DNA of 45,081 bases from a virus (lineage: Duplodnaviria > Heunggongvirae > Uroviricota > Caudoviricetes), in the IMG/VR virus record IMGVR_UViG_2563366897_000006; one strand, written 5' to 3'. This document shows, piece by piece, positions 39,001 through 45,000 of the stretch. Made by a program: the position numbers. The number at the start of each line of letters is the position of its first letter. Position 1 is the stretch's first letter.

Positions 39001-42000
39001 GCAAACCGATGGTACATTGCTTGCCCTGCTATCCCGTATAGACCGATTTGATAGCGATATGACGAATACCATAGACACACTGAAGCTACACCGTGAACAC
39101 ATCTCAAGCAATATTGAAAAGCTGGTACAGCTATCACTTGAAATTGAAGACTTGTCCGCTATTACCAGCAAACTAAAACAGTTAAAAGGTGAGCTATCAC
39201 AGGTTGATGCGGATATCGAGAAGGAGACACAACGCCTTAAATCTATTGATGTTGGTTGTTTGTCTGATTGTGACTTGACTACAAAGGCGGGAAGGATTGA
39301 AGCACAACTGATAATCAAAAGTGCTGTTAAAGAGGTCATTTTAAATACTGCTAAACGTCGCTGTAAAGTAACTTTTCACAATAGTAAGTCAATCACCCTA
39401 CCAATAACAGAAACCCCCTCAGAGGACGTTACAGAGGCTATACAGTCGCTTTCTGAAGTCACTGAGAGGGGGTTGATAGATGTTGATGAGGTTATCATAT
39501 AGTTGAGATTCTATCGTCAGAATCGCTTGTTAGGATTCACAGAAAATTTCTTCAAAGTACTACCTGTACCAGCATTATTAAGCACCTTTGAAGCTTGCGC
39601 ATTAGCGGCATCTGAGAAGGTGCTTTTTCCATTCTCAACTTTGACACTTTTACCACAATTGATACGGGCTTGAAGTTGCTCATTAGTGAGTTCACTCGTA
39701 GAGCGATTATATAGCTCCTGACACAGCAACATACCATTACCTAGACTTGTCGTAGTGTTACCAGTGTTCTTCTTAGAAGTTGCACCACCATCATTCGTGG
39801 TAGCAGTCTTTCCAGTTGCAGCAGAAATATCAGTCTGACCAACAATAGCTTTGAAGTTAATTTCCTGAAAAGTTAGCTGGATTCTTAGACCGTTTGAAAT
39901 CCCCACATCTTTAGAGGCTTTAAAACTCGTAATAATGGAATCGTCAATTTTAATTCCGTCTTTACAGATGACCGAAATAATCTGTTTCTGGTCACGCCAG
40001 CTTTCAAGAGTGTCGATGAAGTTTTCTACTAATTGACCCTGACGAGTTAATAATAAGCTTCCTTCATAGCCAACTACAACGACACCACTAATAGTGATTG
40101 TTCTGGGTGCTCTTTGCACATTATCTGTAACGGTTTGTCCTGATTGCATGTTCTGTGTAGTCACCTGCATAGGACTATCAAATTCCATGTTTTCAGTTGC
40201 TGATAAGGTTAAGAAGGCATCTACATTATCTCTTAAGTGGAAATAGATGCCGTCTTTGCCACTATATTTGATTTGGTTAGAGTAAATCATTAAATTCCCC
40301 TTTGATTTCAAAGGCTTAGTGTATTTTAATCATTTTTAACCAAGCCTTTGATATATAAGTGTTTTCTCTGTTAAGCGTGTTGTACGTAAATTCTATTTTT
40401 CAGTGTGGGTATTAGCTTTACAGATTTCACGTAGCATTCGACTATTATCAATCATCTTCTGGGAATGATGAACTTAATAGCGTAGCTTCTGCGTATTGGT
40501 CGTAGATATTACTGCTAAAGGTCATAAAGCTGGTTTCATCTGGTTTAATGGCAACTTCACCACCAAGTGAAACTTTCACAGGCTCCTGAATACGTTTGCT
40601 CAAAGCACTAATTTCATCTCTCAGGCTTTGGATATCCGTATTCGTTAATGCCGCATCTTGTCTCATGGTGATTAATTCTGGATGCTGGAAGTTAGCAAGA
40701 TTCATAGCTGCACTATTAAACCAACCTTTCACATCGTCCATAGTAAATACTGGCTTAAGTCCAGATTCTTTAGCTAACTCTGGTAATTTAGCTTGTGCTT
40801 CCATTCGTTCAGGTGTAGAGGCTAGTCTTTCATAACCTGCATAGAGAGCGCTACCAGCTAATAGCATATTCCCAAGATTCAGTCTTGATGGTTTCCCATT
40901 CTTTCTATTCACGTTATCCGCTGTAGTATCAGCAACCTGACCTAATCTTGTGATAGCAGTCATAAGCCCGTAAATACTTCTGGTTACACCAACAACTTTA
41001 TTTACAGCAATAACACCAGCCAAGACTTTTAAACTATTAATCAAGCCAGAACCTAAAGCATCAACAACTTTCTTTTGTTCATCGGTTAAACCACGATAAG
41101 CTAATGTCACCTCATCAAAGAACGCTCGCACCTTGTAACTAATATCGGCCAGACTATCGACACCATGTGACATATCAGTCATCAAGCTACCAAGAGATTC
41201 ACCAAGACTTTTACCACTTCCACCAAGAGCGTTTAAAAGCGTTGTTAAGCTTCTTGTAAAATCTTGCAGACCACTTTCAGAACCTCTGAAGATACTATCA
41301 AGCGTGGTATTCCAAGAGTTTTTCAGGTTCCCTAATTGTGCCTGTGTACTTTCTGAAATAGCTTTCCAGCCACCTTTAGCGGTGATTTGTCTATTCAGTT
41401 CCTGAGTGACCTTCTGAAGAGTATCGGCAGATTTTAAAGCCCCCTTCTTCATGGCATCAAATAATTCCTGTTCAGTCTTTCCGGTTGCTTTAGCGAATAC
41501 CTGAACCATACCAGGAACAGCTTCAGCTAGTTGCCCCTTAAGCTCTTCAGCCATAACCTGACCCTTACCAGCCATCTGTGATAATGCTGTCAGTGCTCGC
41601 TTAATCTCTTCTTCACTTCGACCCATCAGACGAGAATAGCCAATCATACTTCTAAAAAGTTCTTCAGAACCTTGAATACCCATAGACTCTTTAGCTGAAG
41701 CACCGAAACCAGCAAACTGTGATTGCAGTTCAGCGATATCTAAACCCGTTGTTTGAGCTAATGACTTTGTGAACTCTTTTACCTGACCTGCATCTTTATC
41801 AAATACGAAATCAATTGAACGTTCAGCACTTGCACGCTGTAAACCAATTTCCATTACTCGCTGATAAGCTGCCAAAGCACTTTGAAAAGTGTAAATAGCC
41901 GTACCCGCTTTAATTGCACTTGAAGCTAGTACATCTAAACCATTTGAAGCATTTTCACTGTGATTATTTTTGCTGGTGGTCTTGTTAAACTTAGAAAGTG

Positions 42001-45000
42001 TTTCACGTAGATTTTGATTTAACTTTGCTAACTCACGATTAAAAGCTTCGTTTCCAAGTGTCTTGGATTTACTACTTAATGCGTAAAACTGACTCTTAAT
42101 GTATTTCTCGACAATTGGGTTAAGACCTTTCAGCTTAGACATATTCGCTGAATAAGCCGCTGTGATTGCTCTGTTGCCGCTAATTCGTGGCTGTCTTGGC
42201 TGTCTAAGTGGCTTTAAAGTATCCTCAATTTCCGTTTTAATCTTAAACGCTCTAGTGTTTTTAAGACGCTGCTCAATCTTGTCAAAGGTCTTATTAAACT
42301 TCCTTTCAAGTTGCCCTAAAGAACTTGTCAGATTGCTGTCAAGTTGCTTGGTATCGACCTTAAACGCTCTATTCAAATTACGTTCAATTCTTTGTGCTGA
42401 CTGCAAAGCTGCCTTTTCAACTCTTTGCAAGCCCTTAATAACGTTCTCGCTGAAGCCTAGCTCAACGATAAAACTATCAACTTTAAATTGTGCCATTGTT
42501 CATATTTCACCTCTGTTAAGCGTGAGCTACGTAAAAAATAATTTTTGGTGGGTATATCTGTTCAGAAGATTTCACGTAGCACACATACAAAAAAGGGAGA
42601 AACTACCGAATAATATCGATAATCTCTCCCCGTGTTATAGATTCGATAGAACCTATCTCATACACCCAACCAATCTTTTTTAATGCCTGACAAGATAATG
42701 TAGTTCCGTTTCACCTATAATTTGAGCATCGGAAGGGATACGGTCGATACACCACTTTGGAATCTTGCGTGTTTTTGGTTTGCGTGAGGTGATAATTTGA
42801 TGTTTGGTTTTAATTCTTAAGGCTGGCTTAGTTTGTAACTTTAAGTTTTCACAAACAGACCGAATAGTCTCTAAACGTTCTTCAAACATTAATCACCTCT
42901 TTTAATTCATAATCAAAGTGCTTTGCTGTATTTCTGAGAAATCTTCGTTAACTGCTCAATATCAGCCTGCATAGCAACCTTCTTCTGCGTTTCATAGTCA
43001 CTAATAATCGCTTTCATGCTATCAAGTTCTTTTTTAAGCTTTTGCTTTAACTTATCCAGTTTACCGGAATAATGCTTAGTCAAATTAGCTTCAGCTAACT
43101 GAAGAATCTCTTCATCTGTTTTATCAGTCGTCAAAATAAATTGACCAGAACCCCTTAATGCTTGTCTGACATCAATTAACCGGAACCCTTCAGGGATACT
43201 TTGAAGAACTTTAGGAACGTCTTCAATCGCTGTACCAAAACCATCATTAAAGTTTCCTTCATAATAGATAAACGGGTTTGACTTAATCTCGTAAGCAATA
43301 TCATATTCTGAAGGTTTCGAGGTTTCTTCGAAGTTCTTAACCGCATCGTAAGCAATATCAAGTTTAATTCTTTGTGCTTTCAGTAGTGGGTAATATTCAC
43401 GCTCAAGCTCAAGTAATGATTCAGTTTTGCATACATCAGGCATCTCTTGAGGTTCAGGAGTCACAAAGATGATTTCCTTTGGTGACATCTTTAACTCTTG
43501 CTCAAGTGCAATTCTTTCATCGTGCTCTTTGCGCTGAATAGCGATAGCTGGATGTTCAGTCTGTGGTGACCAGTCACCGAAGCTATCAATCTTTTTACCG
43601 TTAATATATAGATTTTCCATTTCATTTTCCTCTTCTAAGTAATATTCAGTTTTTAAAAAGCACACCTGACAGCCTATCTAAACTTAGAAGAGACTTAAAA
43701 GGCGGTTTGCCAAGTATGCTTTTTAAAAGCTGAAAAAGCCCTAAACATAGGTGATTCGGATATTCATGGAATCATCCTTATCTGTGAAGGGCTTTGGAGG
43801 TTTGCTTTATAACGTTAACGAAGTTTCAGGAAAAACTTTCTTTAAAAGTTCTGTTTAAAAACTCTTAAAGAAAGCCCTAATCATGATTAGGGCAAAGCTG
43901 TAAAGGGTTCAATGAATGAATGATTAAGCACTTTTCGAGATGACCTCTCAGGTTATATAAGAGGCCATGTAGCGAAAAGCATTGCACCTTTCAGAATAAC
44001 TATCCCTAGATGTAGATGGAATTGTTGAAAGAAATAAGAGAGCAATTCTCTCTATAATTAAAATTATGTCATGCTTAAGGTTATTTGTCAACAGCTTTTT
44101 AACAGATTGGTAACATTAATTCTTATTTACCGTATTACCTACCCAGCAACCAACAAATAGCCCTAAAACCGTCCAGAGAATAACGAGTGTCATTACATCA
44201 CCTCACTGTAAGGGTTTAATTCATTCTGATAGGTCAAGAATACATTCAGCTTCAATAATTGCTCCGGGCTTAAATCAAGTCGGTTGCATTCGCTTGTGAT
44301 AAATCTCTTGTAGTCTGGGTCTGTTACTTCCAGTTTATGAACAAAGTCACCAAGTTTAATTTCGTTGATTATATGCTTGTCAATATACGTTGACGCTTCA
44401 AAACAATGCATGAAATAGATATTAAAGCCCGACCTGTTCAGGTCATTAAGCCAATTCATAGTTTCTTGGTCAACCATAACTTGCATTGAATAATTCATTT
44501 TTAAAATCCTTCCTGTATCGCATTCTAAGACGTTTTAACCCCTTTTTTAGACCACTTAAGGCGATTCCCTAAGTTACCCTGATTAGGGGCTTAAAATCGC
44601 TTAGAATTCGTCTGGTAAAGCCTGAGAGATATGTTTTACTGTTTTTAGCTCAAGTCTGAGACTAATAGCCCCATCTGGTGACCGTAGTCTTTTAACCAGC
44701 TTTGCTTAACCGGAGCCTTCAGAGAATAGTTAGGGGCTGACAAGTGAAGATAGATATCATCTTTGCCGTGGATGCTTCCCCATCCTTCGTATAACTCAAG
44801 CAAGTTTTCAAAATAACGAAATGCTTTATTAGTCTGAAGTTGTACTGTGATAGTTTTCATCAAGCACCCCATTCAGAAATAAGCTTAATTCCCTGCTCAA
44901 GCTGTTCAGGGTCGTTATAGTCGAGTATTACCAGTGGCTTTAATTCGTGTTTAAGCTGGTGGATTTGAGAGGGTTTTAATCGTTTGTTTGCTTTGAGGGT

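Follow-up and report, generated by a model that had tools for sequence, protein, structure and literature searches.

The subject of this analysis is a 71-bp element that occurs twice in a 45,081-nucleotide stretch of viral DNA (IMG/VR record IMGVR_UViG_2563366897_000006, Caudoviricetes), referred to here at its full length as the window. An ordinary lambdoid prophage (tRNAs, STnc100, C4/isrK) takes up positions 1-37500 of the window, and beyond it begins an integrated island with a large serine recombinase, in which a tape measure protein (TMP) gene and a Dit-like baseplate gene follow one another on the minus strand. Each of the two genes is preceded by one copy of the element. The copies, at 40366-40436 (copy A) and 42511-42581 (copy B), match at 52 of 71 bases without gaps (73%), and they have exact ends in common, one of 14 nt (CTCTGTTAAGCGTG) and one of 15 nt (AGATTTCACGTAGCA). 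A pair with such exact ends is expected by chance about 2.5e-8 times per window. The coordinates and approximate identity, the perfectly conserved ends and the ACGT-containing inverted motifs, present in both copies on the gene strand, had been described in a sequence-only reading of this DNA, and all were confirmed. That reading also placed the copies upstream of gene starts, which is true on the minus strand only, as the genes lie on that strand: copy B adjoins the Shine-Dalgarno (SD) sequence AGAGGTG of the TMP gene (ATG at 42496) and so abuts its ribosome-binding site (RBS), and copy A lies 75 nt from the Dit-like ATG. Neither shared end was found again in the 45-kb window (the second end being searched with up to three mismatches).

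Read on the gene strand, each copy consists of GCTACGTGAAATCT, 27 nt, and then ACGTAGC or ACGTACA. The unit as a whole is a 55-nt dyad (GCTACGTGAAATCT, about 27 nt, AGATTTCACGTAGC), perfect in the related sequences L010 and L011, followed by a block of 15-16 nt, (T)CACGCTTAACAGAG, that enters the RBS. A homologue of this leader block (ACGCTTAACAGAGG / ACACTTAAGAGG) is present even where relatives do not have the dyad. In both contexts in which the unit abuts the RBS, namely before TMP and in the second type of Dit leader ('Dit2'), 29 nt separate the 3' arm from the ATG, and the genes concerned are unrelated. Copy B occupies all of the space from a 16-pair terminator to the TMP RBS, leaving no other place for an independent TMP transcript to start.

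Both genes resemble those of Felix O1-like phages. The TMP is 27% identical overall to that of Felixounavirus garuso, with 79% identity over the first 136 nt, and the Dit-like product is 83% identical to garuso_119 (93% at the nucleotide level, over 544 nt of DNA). The counterpart of garuso_119 follows the TMP gene in Felix O1-like phages, and there the two genes abut without a spacer. The phage homology of the island genes begins at their start codons, indicating that the 71-bp unit and the RBS regions are the island's own and, given the abutting phage genes, that the island has added its own signal to each. The TMP and Dit-like pair looks to have been exchanged recently with Felix O1-like phages, and the element is the only conserved non-coding signal before these two helper-derived tail genes of a widespread and apparently unstudied satellite-like island.

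Conservation and geometry of the unit

Variation in the unit was assessed in 112 viral and metagenome stretches, together with loci reached via the TMP protein, which yielded 41 distinct variants with arms. For 34 of 35 variants the dyad measures 55 nt, although the stretches flanking a ATACCCAC block vary among loop types by 2 nt in a compensating manner; this constant length points to a constraint on arm-to-arm spacing. Across 33 aligned variants, the arm cores CTACGTGA and T(C/T)ACGTAG carry zero substitutions, and their ACGT centres lie 45 bp apart. Nor do these 33 vary in the A-tract or at T42, A43 and T47, the positions that define a -10-like TAnnnT (found as TATTTT, TAGAAT, TAGATT, TAGTTT and TAATTT). 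The rest of the loop, an A/T-rich spacer between the arms, is the fastest-varying part of the entire intergenic region. Unsubstituted arms beside a fast-changing loop, at fixed total length, are the signature of sequence-specific protein recognition.

Its occurrence in over 100 independent contigs and 438 of the 5,426 complete E. coli genomes shows that the element is a real conserved feature and not a chance repeat. Of the further copies that the sequence-only reading had proposed to look for, no complete one exists in the island or the window. Genomes that bear the unit carry it at a median of one place and at most five, all chromosomal and none on plasmids. All 41 variants sit before a TMP or a Dit gene, and the unit is restricted to the island family. 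A dispersed repeat of the MITE or REP type was ruled out by this low copy number and fixed context. Copy B has identical or near-identical counterparts in L006, L009, L011, L013, L129 and at least 18 metagenome contigs. More diverged islands were not reached: among the matches listed, homologues of the island's 235-aa protein were all about 90% identical, and its 96-aa protein formed 37 clusters, all of the island family.

The two positions differ in how well the unit is kept. Upstream of Dit, an intact unit is present in 63 of 64 distinct contexts, the sole exception being interrupted by an insertion. Upstream of TMP, it is intact in 28 of 69; in the other 41 the site is empty (the terminator being joined straight to ...AACACTTAAGAGGTG...ATG), truncated, or split by a 25-nt hairpin within the 5' arm. 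The Dit-proximal copy is therefore maintained and looks like the only indispensable one, while the TMP-proximal copy is optional and decaying, and the two-copy state of the window is a minority arrangement. The earlier proposal of a shared cis-acting cassette before two consecutive genes is strengthened by the island specificity, the 29-nt spacing in two gene contexts and the retention before Dit, but its suggestion that each gene is given the same control proved too strong.

Two observations were made on the spacer upstream of TMP. A palindromic module, GAGATAG(N4)CTATCGAAT(C)CTAT with TATG(A) repeats at its flanks, lies at 42637-42662 on the minus strand and recurs in L009, L013, L077 and L129; it comes and goes on either side of the terminator, and the spacer is a hot spot of small hairpin insertions. 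In addition, a weak sigma-70-like site (ATAACA-17-TATTAT, 42610-42638, minus strand) overlaps the terminator upstream of copy B and is not conserved in relatives.

Table 1. Positions of the repeated unit, its parts and the adjoining genes and hairpins in the window
Feature	Position	Strand	Remarks
Island part in window	37913..45081		11.2-kb island within yecE; left junction 37912/37913; about 4 kb more beyond the window, to about L001 21700
Large serine recombinase	37979..39502	+	Resolvase + Recombinase + Zn_ribbon_recom; convergent with Dit
Dit-like baseplate gene	39517..40290	-	257 aa; PF21821, phrog_3721
Second hairpin in Dit leader	40309..40350	-	CAAAGGCUU...AAGCCUUUG; conserved
Copy A	40366..40436	-	Starts 11 nt past the TMP stop (40448), ends 75 nt before the Dit-like ATG (40290)
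Copy A 3' arm	40381..40394	-	AGAATTTACGTACA; outer two pairs lost in the copy A variant
Copy A -10-like hexamer TAGAAT	40390..40395	-	Element positions 42-47, as in copy B
Copy A 5' arm	40422..40435	-	GCTACGTGAAATCT
TMP gene	40448..42496	-	682 aa; PF20155, phrog_4036
Copy B	42511..42581	-	Gene-strand sequence TGCTACGTGAAATCTTCTGAACAGATATACCCACCAAAAATTATTTTTTACGTAGCTCACGCTTAACAGAG; between terminator and TMP RBS
Copy B leader block	42511..42525	-	Shared 15 nt TCACGCTTAACAGAG, entering the TMP SD AGAGGTG
Copy B 3' arm	42526..42539	-	ATTTTTTACGTAGC; core ACGTA invariant
Copy B -10-like hexamer TATTTT	42535..42540	-	Element positions 42-47; without a conserved -35
Copy B 5' arm	42567..42580	-	GCTACGTGAAATCT; core CTACGTGA invariant in 33 variants
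Intrinsic-terminator-like hairpin	42594..42631	-	16 pairs + T-run; ends 12 nt upstream of copy B; conserved in relatives

Operator, promoter or RNA structure

A scan for consensus sigma-70 promoters found no site in either copy on either strand. When both strands of 65 distinct contexts were scored with a sigma-70 position weight matrix (PWM), best sites reached 5-7 bits at positions that are not conserved, as compared to a random-window median of 4.8 bits, a 90th percentile of 7.8 and a value of 12.4 for the island promoter at 44091. A classical sigma-70 promoter was ruled out by these two scans, and of the promoter/operator proposed from the sequence alone, it is the operator that became the best-supported reading. 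Upon inspection by eye, none of the motifs of IHF, CRP, LexA or the sigma-32, sigma-54 and sigma-28 types fits the unit. A leader peptide was also considered and rejected from the sequences, as loop indels shift the frames among variants and the candidate start codons lack an SD.

RNA structure was assessed by family search, folding and covariation. Neither copy matched Rfam at gathering thresholds, nor did permissive filters and a cutoff of E <= 10 yield a match, which rules out an RNA family known to that database. Every variant is predicted to form a hairpin on the gene strand, with a stem of 9-11 bp in most (9-14 overall) around an unstructured A/T-rich loop of 27-37 nt, and no T-run follows the stem. 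Folding z-scores against shuffled sequences were -0.1 for copy A, -2.3 for copy B with its flank and about -1 for L007 and L009; a score of -4.25 was reached only by L010, the variant with a perfect 14-bp stem. Over the 14 pairs of the stem, the 33 variants have 82.0% paired cells, as compared to 81.4% in shuffled alignments. The covariation score (0.095 versus 0.089 shuffled) was reached by 143 of 500 shuffles, and RNAalifold on 18 intergenic regions found 0 compensatory pairs and a covariation term of 0.02; the inner core pairs never vary, and among relatives this close the lack of covariation is not decisive. About half of the cells of the distal stem pairs are unpaired, and the commonest variant has two U.U mismatches. 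The only variable pair of the core stem is G-C in 13 variants and G-U in 20, which would be A.C if read on the antisense strand.

These results bear on the possibility that the unit acts as an intercistronic stem-loop of a polycistronic mRNA, that is, a 9-14-bp hairpin with a large loop, possibly protein-bound, that would act on the downstream cistron through its processing, stability or translation initiation, perhaps in concert with the second hairpin of the Dit leader. Its universal prediction on the gene strand, the alternation of the variable core pair in a way that keeps pairing on the sense strand only, the strong fold of the perfect variant, the placement between cistrons next to the SD, and a second conserved Dit-leader hairpin whose 3' arm appears complementary to the SD all agree with such a role. 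However, pairing is no better than in shuffled alignments and does not covary, mismatches are tolerated in the commonest variant and in the distal stem, the two window copies fold weakly around an unstructured loop of 33-37 nt, and no Rfam family is matched; moreover, a fixed total length and unsubstituted arms are not expected if structure alone is under constraint. The stem-loop is thus possible but somewhat doubtful, and the RNA leader suggested by the sequence-only reading found no positive support.

What is conserved in the unit is its sequence and geometry, not its pairing. The inverted repeat, its sequence-invariant half-sites and their fixed spacing are as expected of an operator dyad, and the fixed spacing suggests DNA more than an RNA loop. 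We therefore favour, tentatively, a unit that gates expression of the tail genes, either as an operator in the DNA or as a start site dependent on a factor. The unit would be a cis-regulatory DNA module specific to the island family, comprising a 55-bp dyad and a 15-16-nt leader into the RBS, with both arms recognised by a sequence-specific DNA-binding protein. Candidate binders are a probable tandem ribbon-helix-helix (RHH) protein or a Dam-helix-turn-helix (HTH) fusion, both encoded by the island, or a protein supplied by an infecting Felix O1-like phage. The dyad operator would enclose a -35-less, factor-dependent start site, with transcription probably beginning in or just after the 3' arm and running into the short shared leader, and the arm-bound protein would gate either initiation or passage into the downstream tail gene. 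In this way the Dit-like gene would be switched on only at the right time, presumably upon helper infection, as would the TMP gene in about 40% of islands; where copy B is present, it would gate TMP downstream of the terminator. Counted in favour of an operator were the plausible DNA binders that the island encodes (the Dam-HTH_7 protein and a protein of beta-alpha-alpha x2 pattern) and an inverted pair resembling the arms in the non-coding region at the far end of the island.

Several observations weigh against the operator. Relatives can do without the TMP-proximal copy, and in some of them a 25-nt insertion lies in its 5' arm. The inverted pair at the far end is only moderately conserved and of variable spacing, and no clear promoter was found at it. 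A -35 is not conserved, and TGAACA-18-TATTTT scores at the background of the sigma-70 PWM, so any promoter would need an activator. The TA of the -10-like hexamer is self-complementary, giving an equally good hexamer on the opposite strand. As the arm cores never vary, covariation is unable to exclude a short RNA stem. Finally, the RHH assignment is of low confidence (pLDDT 57, with no fold match at E <= 0.001).

Three further explanations draw on the repeat as such or on its phage surroundings. A recombination linker or small mobile palindromic cassette, similar to the PeSL cassettes of T4-type phages, would mainly promote the exchange of tail modules, or their insertion or deletion, with any regulation being incidental. 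The copies are indeed direct repeats around a hypervariable TMP gene, the TMP-proximal one shows a clean presence/absence polymorphism, the unit is a mosaic whose 5' flank, arm tail, loop and 3' tail are shuffled among variants, and another small palindromic module comes and goes in the spacer upstream of TMP. The breakpoints between islands, however, lie inside the TMP gene, and homology blocks run continuously through both copies. A deletion product joining copy B to copy A was not seen, the copy-B-type 5' flank being found on no Dit-upstream unit. Only two positions are used; no other site in E. coli genomes carries the unit, which has a median of one place per genome and is absent from plasmids. 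It also lacks the strong sigma-70 promoter that defines PeSLs, and the retention of the Dit-proximal copy in nearly all contexts argues for function at that position. Such a linker is decidedly unlikely. A site for a site-specific recombinase (att- or res-like), at which the serine recombinase would excise or invert the TMP gene, is highly improbable. With its 55 bp, inverted arms at the ends and A/T-rich centre, the unit is broadly shaped like a serine-integrase site, and here direct repeats surround one gene in an island with a large serine recombinase, but the attP reconstructed from attL, attR and the intact yecE has arms GTGTATTTA(G/A)AC around a TGATTTT core that are unrelated to GCTACGTGAAATCT. 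This comparison largely refutes an att-like site; in addition, most islands have one copy only, and no recombinant lacking TMP was found.

The unit might instead copy a middle or late promoter of Felix O1 type, to be read by a transcription machinery modified by the helper phage. Some phage late promoters, such as those of T4, have a -10-like element without a -35, as the unit does, and the cargo of the island is phage-derived. Satellites of virulent phages also depend on the transcriptional progression of their helper, as reported for PLE and ICP1 (PMC13595925). Against this, BLAST found no similarity in 50,697 phage records, and the arm, middle and leader blocks are absent beyond chance from the complete garuso genome. 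All four exact matches to the 9-mer CTACGTGAA encode Leu-Arg-Glu in frame, and none has a partner arm. The early promoters that the phage itself repeats belong to another cassette, of sigma-70 type, and Felix O1 is reported to encode neither an RNA polymerase nor an obvious specificity factor (PMC3185647), its temporal control of expression being unexplained (PMC3185647). Overall, a promoter mimic has a very small chance of being correct.

A broader and rather unlikely extension of the operator is that the island is an uncharacterised PLE-like satellite of virulent Felix O1-like phages whose own TMP and baseplate hub seed or sabotage tail assembly. The dyad would then be a helper-responsive switch, bound by an island repressor or a phage factor, that keeps the tail genes silent in a lysogen-like state and turns them on with the late programme of the helper. 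Satellites of virulent phages must time their expression to that of a helper, and the cis elements and triggers have been worked out for hardly any of them. The unit is a compact, invariant and easily mutated candidate control site before the sole two virion genes of an island found in E. coli, Shigella and Salmonella, and the Felix O1-like phages with which that island has recently exchanged DNA serve in typing and biocontrol. If it were a helper-responsive operator, it would give experimental access to how the island senses infection and to the role of a satellite TMP and baseplate hub, whether in tail redirection or in interference with tail assembly. If it is only an RNA hairpin or a relic, it is a routine intergenic repeat.

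Likeness to known phage and satellite systems

The element is a repeated dyad-type cis-regulatory cassette, familiar in kind, that matches no described family. The late promoters that depend on P2 Ogr or P4 Delta, for example P4 Psid, have a dyad before morphogenetic genes, a poor or absent -35 and a need for a trans factor, and the same cis element stands before several late transcription units. Like these, the island unit is a short repeated dyad before satellite morphogenetic genes without a good -35. The P2/P4 sites, in contrast, are dyads of the form TGT-N12-ACA that lie upstream of the core promoter, with their centres near -55, whereas the arms of the island unit are 9-14 bp long, have centres 45 bp apart and enclose the -10-like hexamer. 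Domain searches of the island proteins found no zinc-finger protein of the Ogr/Delta type. REP elements and the RNase III hairpins of T7 share with the unit the form of inverted repeats, about 50-70 nt long, that recur between the cistrons of an operon. REP elements occur in hundreds of dispersed copies per genome, and RNase III sites need a helix of about 20 bp; the unit is island-restricted, and its 9-14 bp close a large open loop without covariation.

PeSL cassettes of T4-type phages combine a promoter and a stem-loop in about 100 bp, flank variable open reading frames (ORFs) and recombine (Arbiol et al. 2010, PMC2839356). They carry strong sigma-70 promoters and GC-rich terminator stem-loops, number about 50 per genome and act as recombination breakpoints (PMC2839356). 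The likeness lies in intergenic repeats of about 70-100 bp with an expression signal, an inverted repeat, an SD, a variable gene at the flank and presence/absence polymorphism. The island unit differs: it has no sigma-70 promoter, its loop is unstructured and rich in A/T, no island has more than two copies, and breakpoints are located elsewhere. Cassettes that closely resemble T4-type PeSLs were seen in the early region of garuso itself (L014 43200-45000 and L015 1-3700), where about 12 repeats of TTTACA/TTGACA-N17-TAnnnT with a shared SD leader embed a hairpin, either GGGGCTTA...TAAGCCCC or GGGGAGGG...CCTTCCCC.

Putative E. coli satellites with TMP and baseplate-hub genes have been described for Stephanstirmvirinae phages (Barth, Dunham and Seed, PMC10055350). 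They too are small integrative islands that carry a TMP and a baseplate component and miss most tail genes, some have a serine recombinase, their replication initiators vary in a modular way, and parasitism of virulent myophages was inferred. Those satellites have capsid and decoration proteins, RepA_N initiators and mostly tyrosine integrases next to tRNAs (PMC10055350), whereas the present island has Felixounavirus-like tail genes, no detected capsid gene and a lambda-O-like initiator; no repeated cis element is described in that work. The PLE of Vibrio cholerae resembles the island in its large serine recombinase, its replication functions and, presumably, its specificity for a virulent myophage, and PLE gene expression is timed by the transcriptional programme of its helper ICP1 (PMC13595925). 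PLE inhabits another host, a sequence relationship would not be expected, the cis elements that control it are not known to resemble the dyad, and the helper dependence of the E. coli island is putative.

The island and its other features

The island has an integrase, a replication module, only two virion genes and helper homology (Dit 83% identical to Felixounavirus), as a satellite would, and overall it resembles a satellite-type element that targets virulent Felixounavirus. Relatives are found in 487 of the 5,426 complete E. coli genomes (about 9%) and also in Shigella, E. albertii, E. fergusonii, Salmonella and Citrobacter, some at other insertion sites (yciI/tonB in TUM9757). A literature search found no publication on this island; SpLE2 of O157 Sakai was considered as a possible match that could not be confirmed. 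At the left end (36187-37928), two mobile elements use one gene, yecE: the prophage has its tyrosine integrase against the 5' end, and the island with the serine recombinase interrupts the gene further in, at the attB cgggTGATTTTagacagcc.

In the TMP gene, about the first 400-650 nt and the last 270 nt are conserved, while islands swap the hypervariable part in between. Its product is 647-725 aa long in relatives, and the gene is disrupted by insertion sequences in several genomes, O157:H7 included. NCBIfam and PADLOC scans of the island gave no regulator or defence assignment. The replication initiator contains four tandem 22-bp iterons within its own gene (L001 19109-19196, outside the window), as in lambda O and its ori. 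The Dam methylase is fused to a C-terminal HTH of resolvase type (HTH_7), and several small ORFs have no detectable homologues. The 96-aa protein, encoded at L001 17682-17972 from the last base of the window onward, has a modelled beta-alpha-alpha x2 pattern and is a candidate regulator. In the AlphaFold model of a 94%-identical homologue (pLDDT 57), the best fold matches, none of them significant, were all tandem or single-chain RHH proteins, namely accessory chains of the F relaxosome, AvtR and single-chain Arc. The island-specific 235-aa protein (42913-43620, minus strand) is named 'transposase' in many NCBI records. It matched nothing in Pfam, PHROG, NCBIfam or PADLOC, so the name looks unsupported.

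Additional non-coding features were noted around these genes. In the Dit leader, the 3' arm of the second hairpin (CCUUUG) is complementary to the Dit SD region UCAAAGGGG at 40296-40304, an anti-SD/anti-anti-SD arrangement that could control Dit translation. A 570-nt non-coding gap on the minus strand (43666-44192) contains a near-consensus sigma-70 promoter at 44091-44063 (TTGACA-17-CATAAT with TG), followed by two terminator-like hairpins at 44053-44037 and 43893-43874; this gap could specify a short RNA, or else a leader that controls the downstream genes by termination. At L001 21318-21341 and 21670-21693, outside the window, lie the arms of a perfect inverted repeat of 24 nt, ACTATGAGGTTGATTCCTAGAACA. 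One of these adjoins the attP arm at the right end of the island, and a third, related copy is found about 400 bp inside.

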